From positions 124,001 to 188,000 of the forward strand of contig NC_043013.1 of assembly GCF_006345805.1 (NCBI RefSeq): 64,000 bases of DNA. Reading direction: 5' to 3'. This DNA comes from Octopus sinensis. Lineage: Eukaryota. This document shows positions 9,197 to 63,123 of this stretch, one piece after another; position 1 is the first letter of the stretch, and each line of letters starts with the position of its first letter. A model generated the notes under the pieces. It made no database searches, was not told the DNA's origin, and was given only the letters and a program-made list of their open reading frames with translations. A program made the position numbers and the translations under genes.

Positions 9197-9725
9197 TTAC
9201 ATGTATTGGTAAGTGCAAGTCAATGACCTTTTAGGGGAGTATGCAGTCAACAATGCCTTCATGTGTAACTCAGATGGGAGCAGTATTTTTATGTAAGTTG
9301 TACCTGTATTTTGCACAATACCTGCAAACATTCAGTGTGTCTTGATGCAGTTGCAAGAGACTAAGTGGTCACATCGTCATTGCATGACATTACTCATGGG
9401 GTTAGCGCACATCAGTCGTGAGGTGTGTGGGCTGTGAGTGGATAGTGACATAAAAAGTAAAGGGCTGTATTATTTGCATAAGAGTGTTGCACAGAAACTG
9501 GTTGATGCCAAGTTGGAAAGAGCGTAAGTTGAAGAATGAGAAACACTTATGATAGACAATCACCAATGGAGATTTGAAAGAAAAATACTTTGGAGGAAAC
9601 CTTGAACCTCAACACTGAGACTGGAAAATCTAGACTAAGAATATGAAGAAAACCAACAGCAACCCAAAGACCTGGGGAAAACATGCAACAGATCGCAAGT
9701 TCCACAGAGAAACCATTTCAACTAG

Positions 9726-10095
9726 TACAGTTTTATATTTAAAATATGAGGAATTATGTACATTATTTACATTTGACGGATATTTGTCCTCATCTTGTTT
9801 GTTGTTAACACAACATTTTGGCTGATATACCCTCCAGCCTTCATCCGGTGTCTTGGGGAAATTTTGAACCTGGGTTCTTATTCCTAAGGTATTTTTCGAT
9901 GTTATTATAATTACTATTATTATTATTATTATTATTCAGGTCACTGCCTGGAATCAAACTCGGAATCTTGGAGTTAGTAGCCCACGCTCTTAACCAATAC
10001 GCCATATACCTGTGGGCATATGGCATAGTGGTTCGAAATTTCCCCATGACAACAAACAAGATGAGGACAAATATCCGTCAAATGCAAATAATGTG
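9726..10095 (-). mobile_element. Family A tRNA-head + hammerhead element: full minus-strand copy plus a head-to-head, internally deleted plus-strand copy; 11-bp TSD
   Basis: Minus strand has a tRNA-like head (~9940-10010), (AAT)n, and a mutated HHR (CGGATGA...AAAATGTT, ~9807-9852). Inverted terminus at 10050-10095. CATTTCAACTA at 9714-9724 and 10096-10106. Confidence 0.85.
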
Positions 10096-11089
10096 CATTT
10101 CAACTACTGTAAAACAGTTTGTAAAAATCCTATAGAAATGAATTGAAGAAATGAGAAAGACGAGAAATTCAGCAAAGCCAACTACATCTAAATCTGACCA
10201 TCAAATGCAGCTTGTGCACTGTTTTGTGCAATGATCAGTTATGTCAGTCATCAGAAATATTAAGCACAATGAATGGTTTGTCTGAAGAAAACTAAACTTA
10301 CATGGAAAGCTGCAATTTGATCAATGAATCATAAGCAGATAACACGCATATATGAGTGATTGGGGCCGCATTTGGTTAACAATCTGAAATTGTAACAACA
10401 AACTACGAGTGGACTGTGCAACATGTCTAATATGTGCTGAGAGAGCATGCATGAATGGTGTCCTAAATGAACAAATTGTATAGTGAGTGAACAGTTTTTC
10501 TGAAGAAAATTATATTCAACCAACAAGCTGAAATTCAAACAACAAACCACAAATAAACTATGCATGCATATAAGTGGCTGCAAATACCCAAGTACGCATT
10601 TCATATAACTTGCAAATCTTTATATTTTATAGGTGAAATAAACATCAGAGATGCTTTGCTACTCAGAGGTTTTGCAAGTTCTTCTGAATCCATTACAATG
10701 ATGGAAAGCCTTCTGCATCAAAATTAGGTTAAGTATTATTTGTTAAATACAGTTGCTTTGAATTTGCTTCAGAAAGATGTTTATGGTTGTGATGGCTAGT
10801 TGGAGTGGGAGTGCTGGGAATGTGGCCTGGGTGTCAAAGGGGCAGCAACCCGAAAATATTTGGGAACCACTGGCACAAGTGAAGCGATAATTTGTGCAGA
10901 AGCCAAACAGTTGTCTGATGATCTTAGAGTGAATTCTGCCAGTGGAAGTGATACTATGAGTACTGAATTTTCTTGCTTCGAAGAACTGGTTTACCAGATT
11001 CCATGCCATTGTGAGGTGTGGTGAGTCTGCTACTGCAAACACTAAACCAACTCATGAGTACCACATTGTGCTTTTAAACATCAGTGACA

Positions 11090-12060
11090 AGGGTAGCTTT
11101 GTTTCACAACCAAGATAAAACACCAGCTGGTTTACAAAACAAAAAATATCAGCTCTATTATTTAAAAAAAAATACGGCTGGTTCTATGCCTCATAGAACA
11201 CAAGTCATATTAGAGAATTTGTGCAAGGCCACAAAGTGATGAAAGACCAGCTGACCTTACTTTCTATACAAATGCTTCTGAGGATTTGTAAGCTAAAATC
11301 TTCCCCCATTTACCATTCAGGAACCTAATCCCACTTCCCAAGAATTCAAAAACATTCATAAGAATCATCTTGATGTTTTCTGGCAGCTGAATTACAAGGC
11401 TTTGATGACTAAGAATCTTTTCACTGAGTGGTTGTTTGAAGTGTTTGGCCCTACTGTGCATGAATACCTTAGGGACAATAATCTTCTCCTCAATGCCCTT
11501 TTGGTCATATATAATATCCCAGCCTACCTTCCATATTTTGATAGACCAATTACTGGAACAGATCAGATTTGTAAAAGTGCCTTTCCTGCCTCCCAACACA
11601 ACTTCCTTTCTCTGGTCCAAAGGACCAGTAAGCCATTTCTAATATTAAAAAAAAAACTCTATAAAGGCTCTCTTTAGAAAATGTTTTCAGGCCACTGACC
11701 CTTGGAAAAGTCAGTTTAATATTGCTGATGCAGGGAAGCTTGGAAACCAGTTTCAGTGTGCTGTTTGCATGCCACTAGGTGGTCACTGTAGCCTGAGAAC
11801 ATGCTTCTAAGAAACTTTGGTAGGACCCTATTGTGCAAGAAGTTGTCAGTCTGAGAAATTCCAGGAATCTGGAAAGGAAAATATTCTTACTTAGTATCAC
11901 AGAGATTTGTCTGGTTGTTGGAATAAAATCTCTAAATTAACCATTGAATATGTCCCTGACAGAGCTGCTGTGGAGCTGGGCTTGAATCACTTCAATGGCA
12001 CAGTAATGTGCCATTCAAGTAATGGCCTAACTTTTGGAAGCAATCAACCCTGGATGCCTT
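11090..12060 (+). pseudogene. Decayed Tigger1-like pogo transposase fragment
   Basis: Remnants GHKVMKDQLTLLFYTNASEDL, MTKNLFTEWLFEVFGPTV..ALLVIYNIPAY and FLPPNTTSFL match Tigger DDE motifs; frameshifted. Confidence 0.8.
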
Positions 12061-13449
12061 TTTTAGGAAGAAGATAATCTTCGACCATTCAGAAGAACCA
12101 GAAGAATGTGTACACAAGATGTCTATGAAGGAGGGCACTTCTCCTCCAACCTTTTCTCATTAATGTCCTCCTCCTCTACCTTTTCTTTGCATCCTCAACA
12201 CTTTGCTACACTCAAGTAGGATACATTTATTTACAGGCATTATTACTTTATTGATTTATTCCTTATGTATTTCTTCATTTGTTCAGCATCCATTTTCCCA
12301 TGCTGGCCTGGATTCGGACAGATATTTCATTAGGAACAGGATTTTACAGCCAGGTCTTTCCTGTCACTAATCTTTGTTTTCAAGTAAGGGATATCATTTT
12401 ATTCTACAGCTTTAGGATTTTCCTTGTCTATGAAACAACGGTCAACCCAGACGTCCCTTCATAAAGAATTACAGACAAGTTGAAGCCAAATATACATGTA
12501 AACATAAACAGTTCATTTACAATTATTGCAAACATGTTTAGACAAAGAGAAAAACAGACACGCATGCAAACATACACTTATTTATATGCTTAGGTATTTT
12601 ATGCATTTGTTACTGATGGAAGGATGATGAGAAAAAAAACACCATTTCATGCCTCTATGTAGAGTTTGGTTGCAGCTTTGAATAGATTACTTCTACTTAT
12701 ATGTATTTCAATTACTGATGTAACGAATAATATGGCTAATGAACAAGACTCCAGAATGGATTAACTTCATTTATAGAGACTTCCCTGCAATCACAAATGA
12801 AGAAATGCTGTCACTGACAATAATTATATTTAAGTCCAAAACGCTTCTGTACAGTTTCCGTCTACCAAATTTTGCTGACAAGATTATGGATGGAAGATTA
12901 TTAATAAAGTGCTGCTGCTTGGTGAGACTGAACTTGGAACCACTTGGTTGCAAAGTAACCATTTTGAGTGGAGAAGGCACAGCTGGTCGACACAACCCTT
13001 AAAATGTAATAAGTACTCATTTCATTGCTCACCTCCCCCCCTCCCCAACCAACCCAATACAACCAAGGATGAAAATCAAAGTCAACTGCAATAGTAACAG
13101 AACTCAGAGTGCAAAAGAATGGAGTCCAGCACTTCACTGATTCTTCTAACTTGACATCAAATAATAAGGACAGCTTTTACAGGGTCACTTAACAGGCTAG
13201 AAATAGCAACCAAATCTCTCTCATATAACACTCAAACACCTTGGAAAAAGGAGACTTTGGAAAATATGGTTCTGTGTTCTTTGCACATAAATAAAAGATA
13301 GGAGACTGACATCTCTAAAGTCTTTAATCACAGATCTGCTGAAGTTAGAAACCAGAAATAGTTTCTAACATAAGCATAAGACCAGAAACTTGGATGAGGG
13401 GTTGGTTGAGTAATTCAACCTTAGGTATTGCACTGGTACATTAAGACAG

Positions 13450-13765
13450 ACTCACAAACAAAGCCTTGTGGGAAGCAGGTGAACCAGGAATCGATTGAAA
13501 CCCAGAACAAGAGGAGGAAAATGGAGGGTCTACCTTGTAATGCTTCCAACATTATAAGGCAAACAAAACCCTCTAATGGACACCCCCAAGGGAGATGGAA
13601 GCATGGCAAACCAAAAACAATATGGACCAAAGTTCACAGAAACTGAAGCATTGCCAGGTGATTACACTTGGAGACAACTGCAATCTGTTGCCAAAAGACC
13701 AACACAGATGGAACTCTGCTGGTGCCATATGTTTCGCATGGAGCCAAAAGAGTAAGATGAAGAGA
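13450..13765 (+). pseudogene. Decayed 3' fragment of an RTE-like LINE ORF
   Basis: SNIIRQTKPSNGHPQGRWKHGKPKTIW resembles the RTE C-terminal motif (PQGxRxRGRPKxTW). Confidence 0.55.
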
Positions 13766-14933
13766 AACATGAAAGGGAAAGGTGACTTCAGCAGGATTCT
13801 GCAGCAAAGCAAAAAAAGACAAAAAAAAAGGGCAGTGGGTATTTTTAGATTCCCCTGCGTTATTAAGAACAGGCAAAATAGAGAATGCGTTCCCACAATT
13901 CACTCTGCCTTGGTGCCAGATCATCATCATCACCACCACCATCACATGTCTACCATGCTGACATGAGAGTTGGACAGTTTGACGGAGCTGGTAAGGCCAG
14001 GATCTACATCGGGTTCCACTGACTGTTTTGGAAAGGTTTCTACAATTGGATGCCCTTCCTAACACCTATCATTTTACAGAGTGCACTGGGTGCCTTATAC
14101 ATGGCAGCAGCAGCACCAGTGCTTTTTATAAGGCCCTAAAGAAAATAAAAATGAATACAAAAAGTATGGGGCTCAAACCCACAACATTCGCATAATTAGC
14201 AGAATGCTCAAAACAACTGAGCAAACCAGCCAGAGATATACCAAGATGGCTGTAAAGAATGGCAGTAAGTGGAAGCGCCAGAAAGCTGTGAAGGAAACAG
14301 AAACATACTGGAAGCAATAAGTGATTGTTGGTTTATGTTCCGAGTTCAAATTCCGCCAAGGTCATCTGAAGGAAGCCAAACAGCAGGACTTGGAGCTTTC
14401 CCACAAGATCCGTCTGCTATTTCCAGCAGAAGATTGGTTTAAAGCTCATACAACTGAAGACAGTCACCAAGGAGATAGGTATAGCAGCTGAAACAAGCTC
14501 AAGGTAACTGTGGGTGACAAGGAACTGCAGAAGGAACCATTCTGCAGGAAAAGGCTAATCCATTCCTTGTTGCCCCACATGAGTGAAGTGTACAGGCCAA
14601 GGGGTGAAAAGCTTGTGACCTTGAGATACCTGATGATACAGAAGGGTTTCTGGCACAGTATTGGGTTTAATCAGCAGCAGAAGGAGAGCTTGCAATATCT
14701 CTCAAATAGCTCCATGCAGTTTCTGCATGGAGCAAAGGATATCTGATGTTTATTTCACCTTCAGTTAGTTACCTCCTCACTGCTATTAATCTGTTCAAGC
14801 AATGTTGGCCTGACCTGGGTTATTCCCCAGTTTCAAGGAGAACAACAACAACAACAAACACTACTGCCACTGCCACCACCACCACTCTGATATAAAAAAT
14901 GAGCGTCCACAGAATATAAAATAAAATAAAATC

Positions 14934-14978
<45 letters not shown>

Positions 14979-15559
14979 AGACAGCAATATTTTTCTTCCA
15001 CCAACCGCTGGAAAGTGATCCATGATTATAAATTATTTAAATATAAAATTAAATGCTTCAAATGAGTTCTTGATAAATGGAGGAGTTTGTTAGCTAAGTA
15101 GGACAAGGCTTAGATAATTAAAAATAAATTAATAAATTATTTGAAATAAAAATAAACAAGTACACAAAAAGATGGCTGCTTATAAGTTCCTTTTAACTGA
15201 GAGAGAAAGAGTAAGATGCATAAGTGTCTTGTGTGTACATAGGTGTATATAACTATATGTGTGCATATATAGTTTAAGAGAGAGAATGTGCAGAAATGTG
15301 TATCTTGCTCAGTAGTTGTATCATGTCCAACTCAGTAAAAACACGATGCCCTGTTTCATAATCACACCAAGCTCTGCTTAATAACTGCATCACACTCTCC
15401 TCAGTAAGCCTGCTATGTTCCATATTATATTGCTCTCAGTAACCATGGATCGTTATGCATATTAACAATCATCATCATCATTTTTCCATGCTTGTATGGG
15501 TTGGACAGAATTCACAGAGGCAGATTTTCTAAAATGGGAGATGCCCTTCCTGTTGAAAT

Positions 15560-16156
15560 AATACATTTCTAAATTTCTCATTGAGATTTATGCAGTAGCA
15601 GCATGATGAAGTGATAGTATGTCTTCAACTTAATGTGGCAGTCCCATAAAAGGGAAGAATGATACTGTTATTTAGCCCTAGGAAACACCGTTCCCTGTTG
15701 GACTCGACACTTTTCCTGTGCCCTTGTGTTTTCAAAATGGAGTCAAGCACCTCCACCTAGGGCTAAATAACAGCAGCATTCTTCCCTTTCATGGGACTGT
15801 CACATTAAGTTGACAACATACCATCACTCTATCGTGCTGCTACTTCATAAATTTCTCTGAGAGATTTAGAAATGTATTATTTCTATTTTCAAAATCAGTG
15901 GATGTATTTCACTTGGAATATATATGTTTTCAAAGGCAGATAGGCATCTCCAGGTAGCAAGCCATGCTACTCCAGACTGATGATGAGCAATGACTCTGAA
16001 ACTAGTCTCTGGGTGCTGGCTTTGCTTGGTGGAGGTGCTAGTCTCCACTTTGAAAACATAAGAACAAAGGAAACAGTGTTTCCTAGGGCTAAATAATGGT
16101 AGCATTCTTTCCTTTCATGGGACTGTCACATTAAGTTGACAACATGCTATCACTTT
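15560..16156 (+). mobile_element. Family B Penelope-like/retrozyme-type insertion: inverted unit + partial direct unit + HHR-containing unit
   Basis: 15560-15680 is the reverse complement of ~15757-15880; the unit recurs in direct orientation at ~16030-16156 after the HHR; another copy lies on the minus strand at 45490-45660. Confidence 0.75.
15972..16012 (+). ncRNA. Minimal type-I hammerhead ribozyme (intact core)
   Basis: CCAGA-CUGAUGA-uGAGcaaugaCUCu-GAAAC-UA-GUC-UCUGG; stem I CCAGA/UCUGG, stem III ACUAGU palindrome, GUC cleavage triplet at 16005-16007. Confidence 0.85.
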
Positions 16157-16581
16157 GCCCTTCATATTGTCAACCCTCACTGGTTTCCAAGCAAGATATG
16201 TTTCTCACAGACAATTGGGAACAAACAGCACTACTTGTATAACAGTGATGCCTGTTTACAACCATCATTTGATGTCAAGACAAAAGAATACACACACACA
16301 CGACAGGCTTCTTTCAGTTTCCGTCTACCAAATGCTTTCACAAGGCTTTGATCAGCTCAGTGTTATAATAGAAGATACTTGCTCAATATGCCAGACAGTA
16401 GGACTGAACCTGAGACCACCTGACTGGGAAGCAAGCTTCTCAACCACATAGCCATGCCAATACCTTTTAATGTATAATCGGCAAATATAGTTTATTAACA
16501 GAAAATAAGGGGACATGAATAGGGGGGACTAAAAACAAAAAGTTTTTATAATAACAATAACACATGCCTACGGAATGACGT

Positions 16582-16955
16582 AGGCGTGGCTGTATGGTAA
16601 GATTGCTTCCCAACCACATGGTTCCAGGTTCAGTCCTACTGTGCAGCACCTTGGACAAGTGTCTTCTGCTATAGCCTTGGGCTGACCAAAGCTTTGGTAG
16701 ACAGAAACTGAAAGTCTGTCATATATATGTATGTGTGTGTGTGTGTCTTTGTGTCTATGTTTGTCCCCTATCGCCGCTTGACAACCAATGCTGGTGTGTT
16801 TACATCCCCCATAACTTAGCAGTTCAGTAAAAGAAACCAATAGAGTAAGTACCAGACTCTAAACAAAAATAAGTACTGGGGTTGAAACATTTGACTAAAA
16901 CCCTTCAAAGTGGTGCCCCAGCATGGCCACAGTCAAATAATTGAAACAAGTAAAA
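16582..16955 (+). mobile_element. tRNA-derived SINE family S1, near full length
   Basis: A-box GGCGTGGCTGTATGG, B-box GGTTCAGTCC, CCTTGGACAAG core, internal (TA/TG)n, tail TGAAACAAGTAAAA; further copies or fragments at ~16290-16460(-), 20100-20435(+), 39275-39630(-), 43995-44155(-), 57640-57860(-). Confidence 0.85.
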
Positions 16956-17973
16956 AAAAAATACACAACCCAACATGTACAAATACATAAAATATACAGA
17001 AACTGTATCGATTTATGTAGAGTAATGTGTATATAACAAGTTGCATGGCAGAATGGTGAGGGTGTTGCACTTCCAATTTGTAAGATCAGGGTTTCAATTT
17101 CTAGTCCAGGCAGTGCATTGTATTCTTGAACGACACATTTCATTTCCCCTTTGCTCCATTACATGCTGCTGTAAATGAGTTCCAGGAATAACCCAGAAGT
17201 TAACCATGCCACAAGCAATCATCCAATTCAACAAGGACTGTCGTAATCTCAGACACTTATACGCCCTGGAACCCAGGTTAAGCTCCAGCCTTAAGCATCA
17301 TAGGGCTCACAACAGACCTAATGTCTATGCAACAGAAAATACAAAACCAAAACAAAACACAGACCCGCTCAAGGCCCACACGGTTGTGCTCAGCAGTGAA
17401 AGCAGGCAATAAAAATAAGATAATGATAATAATAGAGTGTATCAACAAGAGCACTAAACATTAAATAACTAAGTGGTTTACAATAAAGGCAAATAACTTT
17501 AAAAATGCAGAGAATATATGCAAATAACCTTGGAAAGATATATATGAAAGATTAAACAGTAATAATGAAAGAGATATAGGTAGAGCTTAGCGGGCTTTTT
17601 TGGAGGATTTTATTATCTTTTTTTTCTCCAGGACTATTTATTTTATCATTTTTATTTTCCTCTTAATTCTGACACAGTAAATCCAAAGTGATTAAAATGG
17701 ATTATGAGGAAAATAAAGTGATTAATTCACTAATTTACTCATTTAATACACCAACCTCTTTCTCATAAAATATAAATGTGTGTGTGTGAATGTATGTAAC
17801 AAAATAAATCAATAAAAATAACTAGATCACTTCATCAGACCCATGAAGCTGTGTGTGTGCGTAAATGTACATACATTAGTTCCTGTTTAAAAAAACAAAA
17901 AAACATGTGAAAGAACCCCTATATCAATGTATTTGGGGGTTTGTTTCTGAAATTGGGGAAATAATATGATTAG

Positions 17974-18237
17974 TACATTATTTACACGGACATATGGTGT
18001 AGTGGTTAAGAGTGCAGGCTACTAATCCCAAGATTCCAAGTTCGATTCCAGGCAGTGACCTGAATGATAATAATAATAACATTGAAAAATACCTTAGGAA
18101 TGAGAACCCAGGTTTAAAATTTCCCCAAGACACCTGATGAAGGCTGGAGGGTATATCAGCCGAAACGTGTTAATAACAAACAAGATGAGGACAAATATCT
18201 GTCAAATGGAAAGAATTCCATGTCTCTTAAAGAACTG
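17974..18237 (+). mobile_element. Family A tRNA-head + hammerhead element with a short inverted 3' end at its 5' junction; 12-bp TSD
   Basis: A-box TGGTGTAGTGG and B-box GTTCGATTCC (~17987-18058); HHR CTGATGA at 18134-18140 and GAAAC at 18162-18166 (3-nt deletion at the cleavage site); TACATTATTTACA at 17974-17986 is the reverse complement of the family 3' end; TAATATGATTAG at 17962-17973 and TAATATGGTTAG at 18238-18249. Confidence 0.85.
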
Positions 18238-18387
18238 TAATATGGTTAGGTTCTACTCTGGCATAAATGGACGCATTTCAGGTTCCAGGCTCAGTCCTAC
18301 ATTATCTTATCTTCTAAGACAGCCCTAAACCCTTCTTCACTTGGCCTTTCTCTTCTGTTAGGCCTAGTAAACCCCAAACTGCTTTAA

Positions 18388-32720: not shown

Positions 32721-33770
32721 GTAATTCCAACAGACAGTACCTGAACTATTATTCCTGGTAGCGCGAGAGGAGGGTATAAAAAAATACCCTCTTGTAAATA
32801 ACAACAAAAACAACAAATTATGCAATCAACAGGAAAACGGAGAAGTTGTTACATAATTTGGTAATTCTATTGATTCTTACATTAGATCCAATCCAAATAA
32901 CATTTTATTTATTTTCTCTTACCTCCACACAACATTAATAAACTGAAGCCGTGAAGAACAGGTGCGTGGGGGGGAGGGGTGCGAAGAAAGAGATGAAGAA
33001 AATCAAGTTTTTAAAAATCGCATTTTATTATATAATTACAATATTTGACGCTGTTGTTGTTTGTAGTGTTGTTCAGATCAGCGGTGATCTAGCGATCCTA
33101 TGATCAAAAGTGTTCCAGCCATGACCGTCCCGTCTTTGTTCAAACTTATAATATATCCTAAATATCCATTTGCAGTAGGTCAGCAGTGATTTGAGGGAGA
33201 TTTGCTTCTATTTCTAGCAAGTCGAACGGCGGTACAAGAATCCCAGCTTTGCTCATACTGTTGGTGTTGCTGCTGCTGCTGATATCGCTGTCTCCTTTCG
33301 CGCATTTGGTTTCGTTTCTTAAATATCAGACAGTATTTTCGTGTTGCTGGGTGATTCCACAACCAGCTGTGAGGTCGTTGGTTTCAATCTCCTGATCATT
33401 AAACCATATTAAGTTCTTGGTCAAGATATTCAATCTAAACAAATCTGTCTACCAAACTCTATTGCTATCCTTTAGCCCTAGGTCAGCTCTGAGTAAGCAG
33501 ATTTATGATCAAAAGCGTTTCCCTCACGCATTTCATATACAGGACTACATTATGATCATAATGAATGCCCCCTTTTCAAAACAGTATAGTATAATTTGGA
33601 GAAAATTTAGTTGTTATTTCTAGCAGATTCAACAATGCCATAAGACCAATCATGAGCAACCTACAGTCTTCGAAACTTTTTCAGTGGCCGAATGGCCTTA
33701 ATGAGAAATTACTTTGCATTTTATGTGGCACCGGTACCTGTAAAGGACAAGCCTGTACGGGTGGAGGACA

Positions 33771-34350
33771 GTGGTTTTACTTAAATGATTCTAAAGTGCA
33801 GCTCACATGAAGATGGGCCATGTCTCATACAGCCCGTTTCACAAAAACAGGTTGTGGTTTTACTTAAATGATTCTAAAGTGCAGCTCACATGAAGATGGG
33901 CCATGTCTCATACAGCCCGTTTCACAAAAACAGGTTGTGGTTTTACTTAAATGATTCTAAAGTGCAGCTCACATGAAGATGGGCCATGTCTCATACAGCC
34001 CGTTTCACAAAAACAGGTTGTGGTTTTACTTAAATGATTCTAAAGTGCAGCTCACATGAAGATGGGCCATGTCTCATACAGCCCGTTTCACAAAAACAGG
34101 TTGTGGTTTTACTTAATGATTCTAAAGTGCAGCTCACATGAAGATGGGCCATGTCTCATACAGCCCGTTTCACAAAAACAGGTTGTGGTTTTACTTAAAT
34201 GATTCTAAAGTGCAGCTCACATGAAGATGGGCCATGTCTCATACAGCCCGTTTCACAAAAACAGGTTGTGGTTTTACTTAAATGATTCTAAAGTGCAGCT
34301 CACATGAAGATGGGCCATGTCTCATACAGCCCGTTTCACAAAAACAGGTT
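33771..34350. repeat. 83-bp tandem array, 7 copies
   Basis: Units start at 33771, 33854, 33937, 34020, 34103, 34185 and 34268; identical except a 1-nt deletion in unit 5. Confidence 0.97.
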
Positions 34351-35139
34351 GCCTATGCCTACCATGGATGCTCTTTGTTGATCTGCTCACTATTGTAGTT
34401 GTATAACCCTGGGTCAGCCCTGATCAAGCAGTCTCATTATAGGTGTATAATGGTATCTGCCAAACCAGATACCACTATACAACTTTGTTCTTCAATTTAA
34501 CAATTCTGCCAGTCTCCATCTTAGACCAATATCTTTTTTTTTTATTAACCTCCGAGCACAGATAGAATGCCACAAGGTATTTCATCAGACATCCTAATGA
34601 TTCTACCAACTTGCCTTCATATATATGTATGTATGTGTGAAGGCTTGTGGTTTAGTGGTTAGCGTATTCGGCACATGATCAAAAGGGCAGTGAGTTCAAT
34701 ATCTGGTGATGCATTGTGTCCTTGAGCAAGACCCTTTATTTCATGTTGCTCCAGTTCACTCAGCAGGCAAAAACAAGTCGTACAAGTAATTCAAAAGGGA
34801 CCAGCCTTGTCATGTTGGATATCCCTGAGAACTGCATTAAGGTTACATGTGTCTGTGGAGTGCTCAGCCACTTGCATGTCAATTTCACGAGCAGGCTGTT
34901 CCTTTGATTGAATCAACAGAAACCCTTATCATCATAACCAAAGGATTTTCGGTTGTATGTATATGTGCAGGATTATATAATACCCATACGTGCATCTATA
35001 CATTATTGCATGTTATGACTATTTAGCTAAGCTAGCACAAGAATCCACAATAACGGACCTTCTACATGCTTACCTGCTCTGTTAGAAATAGCAGCTGGTG
35101 GAGCATTAAAAAAAATCAACCTTTGCATGTTGGGCCTTA

Positions 35140-36630
35140 CAGAAACAAAGCGGCTGAGTACCTTTCAAGCGTTGGGCCTGACGGAGATAAAGTGGCTGAG
35201 TTCCTTTTGAGCATTTGGCCTCATGGAGGCAAAGTGGCTGAGTTCCTTTCGAGCATTTGGCCTCATGGAGGCAAAGTGGCTGAGTTCCTTTTGAGCATTT
35301 GGCCTCATGGAGGCAAAGTGGCTGAGTTCCTTTCGAGCATTGGGCCTCATGGAGGCAAAGTGGCTGAGTTCCTTTTGAGCATTTGGCCTCATGGAGGCAA
35401 AGTGGCTGAGTTCCTTTCGAGCATTTGGCCTCATGGAGGCAAAGTGGCTGAGTTCCTTTTGAGCATTTGGCCTCATGGAGGCAAAGTGGCTGAGTTCCTT
35501 TCGAGCATTGGGCCTCATGGAGGCAAAGTAGCTGAGTTCCTTTTGAGCATTTGGCCTCATGGAGGCAAAGTGGCTGAGTTCCTTTCGAGCATTTGGCCTC
35601 ATGGAGGCAAAGTGGCTGAGTTCCTTTTGAGCATTTGGCCTCATGGAGGCAAAGTGGCTGAGTTCCTTTTGAGCATTTGGCCTCATGGAGGCAAAGTGGC
35701 TGAGTTCCTTTTGAGCATTTGGCCTCATGGAGGCAAAGTGGCTGAGTTCCTTTTGAGCATTTGGCCTCATGGAGGCAAAGTGGCTGAGTTCCTTTCGAGC
35801 ATTTGGCCTCATGGAGGCAAAGTGGCTGAGTTCATTTTGAGCATTTGGCCTCATGGAGGCAAAGTGGCTGAGTTCCTTTCGAGCATTGGGCCTCATGGAA
35901 GCAAAGTGGATGAGTTCTTTTTGAGCATTTGGCCTCGTGGAGGCAAAGTGGCTGAGTTCCTTTCGAGCATTTGGCCTCATGGAGGCAAAGTGGCTGAGTT
36001 CCTTTTGAGCATTGGGCCACATGGAGGCAAAGTGGCTGAGTTCCTTTTGAGCATTTGGCCTCACAAAGGCAAAGTGTCTGAGTTCCTCTTGAGCACTGGG
36101 CCACATGGAGGCAAAGTGACTGAGTTCCTTTTGAGCATTTGGCCTCACAAAGGCAAAGTGTCTGAGTTCCTCTTGAGCACTGGGCCACATGGAGGCAAAG
36201 TGACTGAGTTCCTTTTGAGCATTTGGCCTCACAAAGGCAAAGTGTCTGAGTTCCTCTTGAGCACTGGGCCACATGGAGGCAAAGTGACTGAGTTCCTTTT
36301 GAGCATTTGGCCTCATGGAGGCAAAGTGGCTGAGTTCCTTTTGAGCATTGGGCCTCATGGAGGCAAAGTGGCTGAGTTCCTTTTGAGTGTTGGGCTAGAT
36401 AGCTGAGTTCATTTTGAGTGGGCCTCATAGAGGCGAGGTGGAGGTGGCTGAGTTCCTTTCGAGCATTGGGCCTCACGGCAGCATATTGGCTGCATTCTTG
36501 GGCCACATAGAGGCAAAGTGGCTGAGTTTCTTTTGAGTGTTGAGCCTCACAGAGGTAAGGCAACTGAGTTCCTTTCAAACGTGTCTCACAGAAGTGAGGT
36601 GGCTGAATACCTTTTGAGTGTTGGGCCTCA
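35140..36630. repeat. 42-bp minisatellite (~30 well-conserved units plus several degenerate ones) expanded inside an RTE-B LINE 3' region
   Basis: Unit GAGCATTTGGCCTCATGGAGGCAAAGTGGCTGAGTTCCTTTT; runs into RTE-B 3' sequence at 36630-36927 ending in (GAT)n. Confidence 0.95.
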
Positions 36631-36930: not shown

Positions 36931-37793
36931 GGTCTGATTAATAAGTGTCTGGACTGTTGCCATAGTAACGAAGCTAAAGCACACAGAGTAAAGCTGCTTG
37001 GCACAGATTGACGTTGAACTCTGTTGTGCATGCGCACTAAGTTTCAACATTCTAGCTCTATTCCGCTGTTTACAGTAGTGCTTGGAAGGAACATGTGTAG
37101 CATGTGATTGTTGCATTGACCCTGACAGAGAAAGTTGAGCAGAGAATCTGCATCATATTTTGCCAAAAGCTTGGTGATACCTGCTTAAGGACCTACGCAA
37201 AGTTTTCATCATTCTCAACACAATCAAAGAGATCTTGTGCAACTGAAACCCAAGAGTCTTTTTGATCAGCCGAAAGTAGTTTTGGCACAAACTTGGCGGA
37301 CACGCCTCTCATACCCAAATCTTCAGTGATAATGGAATGAACTGAACCGTAACTTATCTGCACATCCTCTGATAACTCACAGATAGTGATTCGACAATTT
37401 CCCTTCACTGCTGCATGCACACCTGTGATATTTTTCTCAGTTCAGGTCTCACAGAACGTTCATCAATATCAACAGTCTTTCAACCATCTTGGAAACGTCT
37501 GAACCAATGGTGTGTAGCTCATACACTCCTCTCCATACACTTTCTGCAACTTTGTGTAGGCTTCTGAGCAGGTGTTGCCATGACAAATTTCTCTGTCATG
37601 GACAATACTAAGATCACACGCTAAACACATTCCTTCCAAGCGCTGCTGTAAACAGCGGAAGTGAGCTAGAACATTAAATCTTAGTACACATGCACAGCAG
37701 AGTTCAAGGTGAATCTTTGCCAAGTGGTTTTGCTCTACAAGTTTTAGCTTTGTCACTATGGCAACAGTCCAGATACTTATTGATCAGACCTCA
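36931..37793. mobile_element. mariner-derived palindromic element built from two 5' ends
   Basis: 36931-37205 is an inverted repeat of ~37545-37790; the minus strand encodes a mariner N-terminus (..KLQKVYGEECMS..WFRRF..ITICELSEDVQISYGSVHSIITEDLGMRGVSAKFVPKLL); TA follows the right TIR. Confidence 0.85.
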
Positions 37794-44890: not shown

Positions 44891-45486
44891 CTGTTTTCTA
44901 ACTTAATAATGTTTGATATTTTATGATATTTTATATAATATATTCATTGAAGAATCGTCTCTTCGAAATTTATTTTATTAAACCAGTGTATCTTGGATAA
45001 ATATCCTTATAAGAGGTTTGAATATCTTCATTCTGACTAATATATATATATATATTCTTTTATTCTTTTATATGTTTCAGTCCAATGACTGTGGCCATAC
45101 TGGAGCACCGCCATTGTGATCATCTTTCTACTTTCCACCTTTGTCGGAGCGGCTTTTGGTGAAGGATGAAGTTCAATGCTACTGTCCTCTTTTGAGTTTC
45201 TTGCTTAGATATTGGTTCATCCTGGATCTCGGTGAGCCAGAGTTCAAGTTCATGTTTGAAAACATTTACATCCACTCCATGAAGGCTCCTCAGATGCTTC
45301 AGCAGACAATTAAACAGCTGTGGGCTCCTGAAACATAATATATATTAGTCACAATGAAGATATTCGAACCTCTTATAAGGATATTTATCCAAGATACACT
45401 GGTTTAATAAAATAAATTTCGAAGAGCCGATTCTTCAATGAATATATTATATAAAATATCAAACATCATTATTGAGTTAGAAACAG
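44891..45486. repeat. Inverted repeat with ~150-bp arms (44891-45045 and 45340-45486) downstream of the family D HHR
   Basis: AAACCAGTGTATCTTGGATAAATATCCTTATAAGAGG vs CCTCTTATAAGGATATTTATCCAAGATACACTGGTTT. Confidence 0.85.
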
Positions 45487-54502: not shown

Positions 54503-54790
54503 CATTATTTACATTATTTACATTCAACGGATATTTGTCCTCATCTTGTTTGTTGCTAACACAACATTTCAGCTGATATACTCGCCATCCTTCATCAGGT
54601 GTCTTGGGGAAATTTCAAACCTGGGTTCTCATTCTTAAAAAAAAAAAAAACACCTTAGGAATGAAAACCCAGGTTTGAAATTTCCCCAAGACACCTGAAG
54701 AAGGCTGGAGGGTATATCAGCCGAAACGTTGTGTTAACAACAAACAAGATGAGGACAAATATCCATTGAATGTAAATAATGTAAATAATG
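54503..54790. mobile_element. Family A fold-back: two 5'-truncated, head-to-head copies, each with an HHR
   Basis: Arms 54503-54636 and ~54655-54790; plus-strand HHR at 54690-54735 GACAC-CUGAAGA-aGGCUG..CAGCC-GAAAC-GUU-GUGUU (intact); minus-strand HHR at 54558-54603 (GAAAU variant). Confidence 0.88.
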
Positions 54791-60604: not shown

Positions 60605-60662
60605 TTCAAGCTTTTAAATTTGAGAGCACTAAAAATATTAAACATACCTATATATATATATA

Positions 60663-61460
60663 TATACAATAATATGTTACATTACTCGATAGTCAAGATA
60701 AAACTCTGAGTTTCAGATGCCGAAGTGGAAATCCACAACACCATCTCTTCGGTTATCTGGCTATTTGAAAACGCTATGAAAAAATACCGTTATATAAAGG
60801 GAAATTACTGTGTTATAACTCTGCTTGCCTGCGTACTTATACATCGCTCGCATTTTTCGTCATAAAGATTATATAAAAATACATTAAAAATATATAAAAA
60901 TATATAAATCTTCTTGGACATAACATAGAAAGCATGTTCTATCTGTTTTCTTTAGGGGACCAAAACGTAACAGAAATTTAGTCACATGTGGCATGATCCG
61001 AAAAGCAGCTTAGACCCTACTACATGTCTAAACACAAGGACAGAGCTTTTCGGATCATGCCCACATGTGACTAAATTTCTGTTACGTTTTTGGTCCCCTA
61101 AAGAAAACAGATAGAACATGCTTTCTATGTTATGTCCCAAGAAGATTTTATATATTTTTATATATTTTTAATGTATTTTTATATAATCTTTATGACGAAA
61201 AATGCGAGCGATGTATAAGTACGCAGGCAAGCAGAGTTATAACACAGTAATTTCCCTTTATATAACGGTATTTTTTCATAGCGTTTTCAAATAGCCAGAT
61301 AACCGAAGAGATGGTGTTGTGGATTTCCACTTCGGCATCTGAAACTCAGAGTTTTATCTTGACTATCGAGTAATGTAGCATATTATTGTATAGATAAATT
61401 TCCTCTATTTACATAATATTGAGGTTTCTTTCTTTCTTTTGTTATCTTACCGTTTTACCA
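60663..61460. mobile_element. Family G fold-back insertion: ~345-bp arms, 38-bp spacer, unpaired 3' tail, HHR in each arm
   Basis: Arms 60663-61006 and 61045-61392; HHR at 61298-61358(+) GAUAA-CCGAAGA-GAUG..CAUC-U-GAAAC-UCAGA-GUU-UUAUC with its mirror at 60697-60757(-); flanked by (TA)n. Confidence 0.88.
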
Positions 61461-62379
61461 ATATATATATATATATATATATATATCATCATCATCATCA
61501 TCATCATCATAGCGTCCGTTTTCCATGCTAGCATGGGTTGGACGTTTCAACTGGGGTCTGTGAAGCCGGAAGGCTTTATCAGGCCCAGTCAGATCTGGCA
61601 GTGTTTCTATGGCTGGATGCCCTTCCTAACGCCAACCACTCCGTGAGTGTAGTGGGTGCTTTTTACGTGCCACCCGCACAGGTGCCAGACAGAGCTGGCA
61701 AACGGCCATGAACGGATGGTGCTTTTACATGCCACCAGCACGGGGACCAGGCAAGGCTGGCAACGGACACAAACGGATGGTGCTTTTACGTGCCACCCGG
61801 CACGGAGGCCAGACGGGGCGGCGCCGATCTGTAGCTCTCCTTTCATCTCCTTCTCTCATACATTAACCCTCACTTAACATAAAGACACCTACCCACCCCT
61901 ACCCCTGTATGGTTCTCTTACAAGCTGTATGGCTACCTCAGCAGTGTCAATGGCATGAATAAAAGCATCCAGCACATGCTGTGGAGAAGTCAGCATTTGG
62001 AAGGGCTTCCAACTGTAGAAGCTAGGCATAATGCAGCATGATGTAATGCTAGACTCATTGGATCTTTGTCTAAACCGTCATGGAACATAGATAACATATG
62101 ATGATGATGATGATGATGATATATGTATGTATGGAGGTATATATATATATACATATATAATATATATCCAGCTGTAGAAATACTGTCAGATCAGATTGGG
62201 ACATGGTGCAGCCTCCTGGCTTCCCAGACCCAAGTCGAACCGTCGAACCCATGCCAGCATGGAAAATTGACATTAAACGATGATGATGATGATAATATAT
62301 ATAATAAATAATATATAATCTATATATATATATATGTATGTATTTATGTATGTATTTATATATATATATATAATTTATT

Positions 62380-62415
<36 letters not shown>

Positions 62416-63123
62416 TCATCATCATCATCATCGTTTAACGTCCGTTCTCCATGCTAGCATGGGTTGGACGGTTCGACCGGGGATCTGGGAAGCCAGAAGG
62501 CTGCACCAGGCTCCGGTCTTATCTGGCAATGTTTCTACAGCTGGATGCCCTTCCTAACGCCAACCACTCCGTGAGTGTAGTGGGTGCTTATTACGTGCCA
62601 CCTGCACTGGTGCCAGACGAGGCTGGCATCGGCCACGGTCGGATTGGTGCATTTTACGTGCCACCTGCACGGAAGCCAGTCGAGGCGGCACTGGCTTCGG
62701 CCACGATTCGGATGGTGCTTTTTACGTGCCACCGACACGGAAGCCAGTCGAGGCGGCGCTGGCATCAGCCATGATTCGGATTGTGCTTTTTACATATCTC
62801 CAGTCCAGGGGTCCTGGCATCTGCCGGGTGCCAGTCATAGGATTGGTTCAACGGAGATGTACTTGCATAGCAAGTGACCTGATTCCAAGATGCAGCATGG
62901 AATTTTGTCAGTGAACAGGTCGTGGTCTCAAAGCGATGAAAATGTTTTGACAAATTATATTTAAATGTGGAAGTTAATCTAATGGATTTTGTGTGTCTCT
63001 TAAATGGCTTACAAACACCTTCCACTCTGCAGCTGTTTTCGTTCCAGCACACGATCTCAGATCAGGTCACTATGCAAGTACATCTCTGTAACATATATAT
63101 ATATATTATTTATTATATATATG

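Follow-up and report, generated by a model that had tools for sequence, protein, structure and literature searches.

Autonomous retrotransposons are generally held to need RNA polymerase (Pol) II, or co-transcription by Pol I as in R2, a view that a study of LTR elements with tRNA promoters expresses explicitly (Kojima 2024, PMC10886601). For PAc of Anolis carolinensis, two adjacent internal start sites of the reverse transcriptase (RT) and priming of both target strands were described in vitro (Frangieh et al. 2024, PMC11167929; here and below, published systems are described from the accessible portions of the cited sources). Rotifer Penelope elements have an inverted pseudo-long terminal repeat (pLTR), a tail and target site duplications (TSDs) of 8-10 bp, and palindromes at pLTR 5' ends as well as inverted pLTRs are standard for Penelope (PMC3846280). 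Here we analyse a window of 64,000 nucleotides of the Octopus sinensis genome (contig NC_043013.1, positions 124,001 to 188,000, forward strand), in which three loci share a short unit consisting of a transfer RNA (tRNA)-like head, (AAT)n, a minimal hammerhead ribozyme and a tail. All three loci, reported in an original prediction made from the sequence alone, were confirmed. The unit, which had been interpreted there as a new class of short interspersed nuclear element (SINE), is almost certainly the pLTR of a Penelope element, and we are dealing not with a new SINE class, but with a Penelope variant with a probable polymerase switch. We lean slightly towards the view that a coding retrotransposon swapped Pol II for a tRNA-derived promoter, purged all terminators from its 2.6-kb coding strand and became wholly dependent on Pol III, that its end repeat acts as a built-in SINE, and that a recurrent deletion of three nucleotides (GTT) records cleavage by the hammerhead in vivo. 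The more unusual feature is the TTTT-free open reading frame (ORF), which lies outside the region covered by the original prediction.

Among the first 30 loci, two carry additional sequence upstream of the head that translates as the C-terminus of a GIY-YIG endonuclease (EN), and a search with the sequence of this C-terminus gave 2143 candidates. Head-derived sequence was present directly after the ORF stop in 30 of 30 fetched loci (picked by their ORF-end sequence), as the full motif in 28 and with internal deletions in two. The order of the element is head, (AAT)n, ATG, hammerhead, two 3' end sites, the remaining RT/GIY-YIG ORF, stop, a spacer of 27-37 nt and the head again. One natural full-length copy (L062) comprises an inverted pLTR, a partial direct pLTR, an interrupted RT and GIY-YIG ORF and a 3' pLTR with the head. 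The RT piece matched Pfam RVT_1 (E 1e-9), and two other pieces had no Pfam match. A relative of 836 aa from Anolis, which we take to be of the PAc type, shares 45% identity across the RT and 32% across the N-terminus in pairwise comparison. Hammerhead and tail together make up the first codons of the ORF; one locus (L298) is open for 300 codons starting at the pLTR ATG, between (AAT)n and the hammerhead, and a relative of 847 aa retains the peptide TPD.G..PKRCVNN, which is the hammerhead read in frame. Since the tail is the start of the ORF and the anole element is built alike, the unit is best understood as a Penelope/Poseidon pLTR.

The element is a putative member of the Penelope/Poseidon clade, its RT having been compared pairwise. 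It has a single ORF with RT and, at its C-terminus, a GIY-YIG endonuclease, interrupted in every copy seen, and further features of Penelope/Poseidon were found: a pLTR that overlaps the start of the ORF and contains a minimal type I hammerhead motif, tandem and inverted arrangements, an optional tail of 30-40 nt and TSDs. The RT-EN linker is without the extra Zn-finger of Neptune and Nematis, and a control element has a CxxxxCxxC motif region there. This control is a second, younger Penelope family of the same genome (L114:9626-9997 / L275), Neptune-like with a Zn-finger linker, for which about 97% identity was found among the 40 best matches (1721 candidates). The same two sequence haplotypes were found in solo and in ORF-linked arms of the family, and this speaks against a SINE lineage of its own. 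Thus the autonomous-type partner with RT and GIY-YIG domains, proposed as a check of the original prediction, exists and has the head in its own pLTR; the predicted linkage of head and hammerhead extends through the family, and the tail is of Penelope and not of LINE (long interspersed nuclear element) type, as expected, the 3' ends falling at two sites inside the start of the Penelope ORF. What had to be abandoned is the independent Pol III SINE that captured a pLTR with its hammerhead.

The head aligns to the tRNA genes of this genome with a score of 57, compared with a shuffled best of 31 +/- 4 and a maximum of 46 (300 shuffles), and its A and B boxes are at tRNA spacing, while no parent tRNA stands out. 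By its sequence, the head is tRNA-like and is not a tRNA. The miRNA matches that appeared in Rfam/ARAGORN scans were dismissed as fold-back artefacts. Among 46 insertions chosen regardless of their 5' end (13 random, and 33 in 28 loci obtained with a 3'-only query), 5' starts were located inside the unit in 21, at the head in 22 and further upstream in three. Of 25 insertions reaching the head, 22 stop there; under constant truncation, about two of the 25 would be expected to end within that stretch of 25 nt. Numerous single-arm copies begin at the head and have no long fold-back. The 26 distinct insertions picked by the ORF start include three that begin at the head and four tandem read-throughs, the rest beginning inside the pLTR or being rearranged. 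A Pol III origin of the short copies is very likely, and the original proposal that they come from a Pol III-type promoter and are moved by a Penelope protein appears to be the most likely account of them. Probably, both the short, SINE-like RNA and the full-length coding RNA arise from the tRNA-derived promoter; for the full-length RNA taken by itself, a Pol III origin is somewhat favoured. Assembled contigs of four runs (X1, X2 and X4, guessed to be RNA, and X16, of unknown kind) cover the pLTR and the ORF, although contigs cannot show starts, strand, level or splicing. No joint was seen for the three guessed-RNA runs among the matches listed.

A run of four T (T4) is the metazoan Pol III terminator. 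For 16 of 28 distinct tRNA genes in this genome, the T-run that comes first after the gene has exactly four T, which is compatible with T4 termination, weakly so in an AT-rich genome. The full-length copy contains no TTTT in 2633 nt and 25 runs of at least three T, with 5.9 TTTT expected by mononucleotide shuffle (P 0.001) and 3.6 by dinucleotide shuffle (P 0.028). Across 102 family pieces (79 kb) the T4/T3 ratio is 0.04 and the majority sequence of 2285 columns has no TTTT, in comparison with 15 TTTT in about 2600 columns, part of which are flank, and a T4/T3 ratio of 0.33 in the Neptune-type control of the same genome. From the family's own codon usage 97.5 TTTT would be expected and 18 were observed, so codon usage does not explain the lack; in the control ORF seven were observed for 7.9 expected by codon usage. 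The ORFs of four LINE families contain 11, 11 and 17 TTTT per 2.3-2.6 kb and one in 1.1 kb, and the genome background is 8 per kb. Eleven loci of a set that overlaps the earlier ones, and is thus not an independent replicate, have nine TTTT in 20.3 kb, with 9.5 per kb in their flanks. Among Penelope loci from other organisms, 77 of 79 contain TTTT. The cut-off is sharp at four T, TTT being kept, and variation among the copies points in the same direction, as T arises by substitution less often at the 46 sites where it would complete a TTTT (P 0.009-0.016), and not at TTT-creating sites. A sense strand without TTTT makes transcription of the element by Pol III likely. This lack is moderate evidence, made up of one lineage and one partly independent test.

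The insertions have a characteristic structure. Two-armed insertions, with both 3' ends outward, account for 42 of the 81 examined, and in 39 of these 42 one end is long (after the tail) and the other short. TSDs were found in 28 of the 42 (score of at least 8), whereas shuffled flanks gave a mean of 1.2. Both arms of an insertion have the same base at the polymorphic hammerhead position N7 in 30 of 35 pairs, indicating that they come mostly from one source. By analogy, the structure of the insertions matches the two adjacent internal RT start sites and the two-strand priming of PAc in vitro, as well as the inverted pLTR, tail and TSDs of the rotifer elements. At the short 3' end site (in the pLTR, ORF codons 38-45), a 9-nt repeat is present in one to three or more copies, always in frame. 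Another locus (L282/L287, C4:154068160-154072265) carries a palindromic insertion centred on the head, both arms of which continue into the ORF.

The copies in the window are composed as follows.
9714-9724, + strand: left TSD of copy 1, CATTTCAACTA, the same letters as 10096-10106 (11/11)
9725-10017, - strand: main arm of copy 1, a complete pLTR that begins with the head and reaches the long (tail) 3' end
9807-9852, - strand: minimal hammerhead motif of copy 1, with damaged core
9938-10017, - strand: tRNA-like head of copy 1, with A and B boxes
10014-10095, + strand: second arm of copy 1, folded back from the palindrome of the head, with internal deletions and terminating at the short 3' end
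10096-10106, + strand: right TSD of copy 1, CATTTCAACTA (11/11)
17962-17973, + strand: left TSD of copy 2, 11/12 match to the right TSD
17974-17985, - strand: inverted second arm of copy 2, 12 nt, a near-3' piece (short 3' end)
17986-18062, + strand: tRNA-like head of copy 2, A box 17995-18005, B box 18039-18049
18063-18080, + strand: (AAT)n spacer of copy 2
18100-18237, + strand: first codons of the Penelope ORF in copy 2, with the ATG at 18100, including hammerhead and tail
18129-18171, + strand: hammerhead motif of copy 2, without the GTT triplet at the predicted cut site
18238-18249, + strand: right TSD of copy 2 (11/12)
54504-54638, - strand: left arm of copy 3, a 5'-truncated pLTR with the short 3' end
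54646-54789, + strand: right arm of copy 3, a 5'-truncated pLTR with the ATG at 54661 and the short 3' end
54690-54735, + strand: minimal type I hammerhead of copy 3, with intact core and a predicted cut after 54730 (from the hammerhead consensus, PMC4209133)
9007-9055, + strand: a fourth, small fragment of 49 nt, sharing an internal deletion junction with copy 1 (second arm)

The TSDs of 11-12 bp announced for the two complete copies are therefore real, and the description of the third locus as a 5'-truncated fold-back without the head was correct; a TSD was looked for around copy 3 (fold-back 54504-54789) and not found. The inverted near-3' piece described at the 5' junction of both complete copies exists in copy 2 as 12 nt; in copy 1, the inverted arm (10014-10095) is a fold-back of the head with internal deletions, i.e. 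more than a copy of the 3' end alone. The 49-nt fragment is nearly identical to 10029-10077, including the private deletion junction, at a distance of about 1 kb, and looks like a locally templated insertion.

The hammerhead of copy 3 has an intact core, in agreement with the original prediction; its stems I and II form in the minimum-energy fold, with a z-score of -1.3 that is not significant alone. Two substitutions are present in the core of copy 1. The sole common core variant of non-CpG type lies at the unconstrained position N7. Because the hammerhead region is also coding and most copies decay neutrally, its conservation is not creditable to catalysis alone. Minimal hammerheads of this kind cleave weakly and as dimers (PMC4209133). 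A 3-nt deletion of GTT at the predicted cut was found in 38 of 167 arms, in comparison with four for a nearby deletion of AAC. The GTT deletion is present on each of the two haplotypes (p 0.55), and in seven of 31 pairs the arms are unlike in this respect; being unlinked to haplotype and variable between arms, it recurs. It may be a scar of hammerhead cleavage in vivo. An RT jump over the cleaved RNA via the shared GU would leave such a deletion, slippage being the alternative.

The following sequence of events is proposed. TFIIIC and Pol III would start a few bases before the head and, as there is no T4 terminator, read through the 2.6-kb ORF and onwards into tandem copies or flank. The short RNA would come from any pLTR whose boxes are intact, either solo or at the 3' end of an element, so that solo pLTRs would multiply like SINEs and outnumber the ORF copies. 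The element protein would nick both target strands 11-14 nt apart, and the RT would be primed within the start of the ORF at two internal sites, separated by about 25-35 nt, one per strand, as for the anole Poseidon in vitro. Flank transcribed past the internal sites would be dropped and thus no poly(A) would be needed. The two complementary DNAs (cDNAs), mostly from one source locus, would then be joined head to head, often by fold-back at a GCCC-NN-GGGC palindrome located at the 5' end of the RNA. Sometimes the hammerhead would cut the RNA, and the RT would jump the break via a 2-nt microhomology, deleting GTT. Translation of an uncapped Pol III RNA is left unexplained by this scheme; the protein might come from Pol II read-through of some copies.

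Several observations speak against Pol III transcription of the whole element and against cutting in vivo. Pol III RNAs are uncapped and normally short (Kojima 2024, PMC10886601). Neither ARAGORN nor Rfam called a tRNA or a hammerhead in the window as a whole or in short pieces of it, the head included, and the head has no cloverleaf and is not foldable as a tRNA. No uninterrupted full ORF was found among the 150 and 88 best protein matches, and the family may therefore be dead. The copies go back to a small number of masters, and the TTTT result thus amounts essentially to a single lineage (P 0.001-0.03); two of the 79 control loci (L362 and L373, metagenome contigs) are without TTTT over 1.4 and 1.9 kb, and T-poor Penelope families hold just 0.6-1.5 TTTT per kb, several of them below 1. 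As for the hammerhead, an intact core is present in 37 of 157 arms, 5' starts are not enriched at its predicted cut (7 of 53, p 0.19), and no reads of the anole element ended at the hammerhead cut site in the accessible part of that study (PMC11167929). Finally, a native hairpin, or near-palindrome, spans the start of the head and could halt cDNA by fold-back alone, so that the pile-up of 5' ends is insufficient as proof of a promoter.

This hairpin leads to the possibility that the head has no promoter role, short copies being ordinary 5'-truncated Penelope insertions that stop at the hairpin, with self-priming of cDNA by fold-back. It would agree with the palindromes and inverted pLTRs usual for Penelope, but many single-arm copies begin at the head without a long fold-back, and neither the A and B boxes at tRNA spacing nor the depletion of TTTT would be explained, which makes it improbable. 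Even less credible is the model of the original prediction, in which an independent Pol III SINE with a captured pLTR and hammerhead parasitises a separate headless Penelope. Most copies are indeed without ORF sequence, begin at the head and carry TSDs, as this model would have it; against it stand the head sequence at all 30 ORF ends and the haplotypes common to solo and ORF-linked arms, and no second, closer or headless Poseidon family was found among 88 matches to an outside relative (11 loci examined). A more serious, still rather unlikely, competitor is a head that is a SINE or tRNA relic driving Pol III on the short solo copies only, with full-length RNA made by Pol II and the lack of TTTT due to chance or another pressure, e.g. 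avoidance of splice-acceptor pyrimidine tracts. It accounts, without an uncapped mRNA, for solo copies being in excess and for 5' ends piling up at the head, it fits the intron-containing or TATA/Inr-type promoters of the Penelope pLTRs studied, and the two TTTT-free control loci suggest that such a lack may arise otherwise; these two have no A/B box after the ORF, and the A/B-box pattern is matched by four of the 79 control loci. On the other hand, the cut-off at four T is sharp while TTT is retained and codon usage offers no explanation, variation among copies avoids making TTTT, which other Penelope ORFs tolerate, and full-length copies also start at the head. For these reasons Pol III transcription of both the short and the full-length RNA is preferred here.

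The family is abundant, with 3261 first-look candidates in the genome (2.72 Gb). In 1.15 Mb (115 arbitrarily placed 10-kb stretches), 13 pieces were found at 12 sites, i.e. about 10 per Mb, which extrapolates to roughly 28,000 insertions (Poisson range about 15,000-50,000). Most copies are solo pLTR pieces, often head-to-head. No family copy was found in 251 kb of flanks around unrelated loci, so the density is uneven, and no relative of the element was found in the viral contigs searched. One copy (L060) is embedded in decayed pol sequence of an LTR retrotransposon. The family may already stand in Repbase, Dfam, SINEBase or the repeat library of PMC13282606, as a SINE or as Penelope.

Other repeats of the window were noted as well. 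Further repeat families also occur as inverted pairs around simple repeats (62204-62508, 15555-15883, 36931-37790 and 44924-45461). A near-perfect inverted repeat at 60656-61399, with 253-nt arms that are 99% complementary, 238 nt between them and a hairpin within, is possibly a young miniature inverted-repeat transposable element or fold-back element. Two tandem arrays consist of 42-bp units in about 30 copies (35004-36521) and of 83-bp units (33701-34434).

If the preferred reading is true, the element would represent a natural multi-kilobase ORF shaped for Pol III and a counter-example to the requirement for Pol II, and would raise the question of how uncapped RNA is translated. Further cases might be found by a simple screen for pLTR A/B boxes combined with a TTTT-free ORF. 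The divide between SINEs and autonomous elements is blurred, tens of thousands of what annotation pipelines would probably call "tRNA-SINEs" being Penelope pLTRs. Moreover, the rule of one long and one short end and the GTT deletion provide genome-scale tests of two-strand priming and of cutting by a minimal hammerhead in vivo.

In the literature searched, with most subscription journals lying outside the search, no Penelope element whose pLTR is tRNA-derived was found, nor any autonomous retrotransposon transcribed by Pol III. The unit is comparable to four described systems. PAc of Anolis carolinensis (PMC11167929) likewise has a single ORF with RT and C-terminal GIY-YIG starting at the hammerhead, and its two internal RT starts result in an optional tail; it also shows priming of both strands and tandem and inverted pLTRs. 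In contrast to the octopus element, no tRNA-derived promoter is described in the accessible text for PAc or other Penelope elements; the pLTR promoters studied are associated with introns or with TATA/Inr, and other Penelope ORFs hold TTTT. With tRNA-derived SINEs (SINE2) the unit shares the tRNA-related 5' head with A and B boxes. A SINE2 as a separate lineage was rejected, because the whole unit belongs to the partner and the haplotypes are common; the LINE-derived 3' end, poly(A) or simple-repeat tail of a SINE2 is replaced here by 3' ends inside the Penelope ORF start. The combination as such is also not without a standard category, as had been thought, since SM-alpha of Schistosoma has been described as a tRNA-derived, SINE-like repeat with a hammerhead. 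SM-alpha and Sj-alpha (PMC6765202, PMC2770079, PMC8490949) are short, apparently Pol III-transcribed and carry a type I hammerhead, but this is canonical and often in tandem, and no coding partner is mentioned in the accessible text, whereas the octopus unit is the pLTR of a coding element.

Animal non-LTR retrozymes (PMC7229834; bioRxiv 10.64898/2026.07.22.740005) are non-coding units with a hammerhead, related to the pLTRs of Penelope and presumed to use its proteins, and together with the non-autonomous Chlamys elements they are precedents for Penelope-dependent non-coding units. Their head-to-tail tandem arrays and circular RNA, without a tRNA promoter (the accessible text of the preprint has no mention of tRNA), differ from the octopus copies, which are dispersed and, among those sampled, single or head-to-head. 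Finally, the TRIMp3 elements Cassandra, Helenus and Ajax (Kojima 2024, PMC10886601) resemble the octopus element in having a tRNA or 5S promoter within the terminal repeat, probably acquired by SINE insertion. They are non-autonomous LTR elements of 0.3-1.3 kb with true LTRs, a primer binding site, a polypurine tract, TSDs of 4-5 bp and no ORF, whose autonomous partners, according to that study, must use Pol II, whereas in octopus a pLTR with TSDs of 9-15 bp belongs to a coding element that itself has the head.

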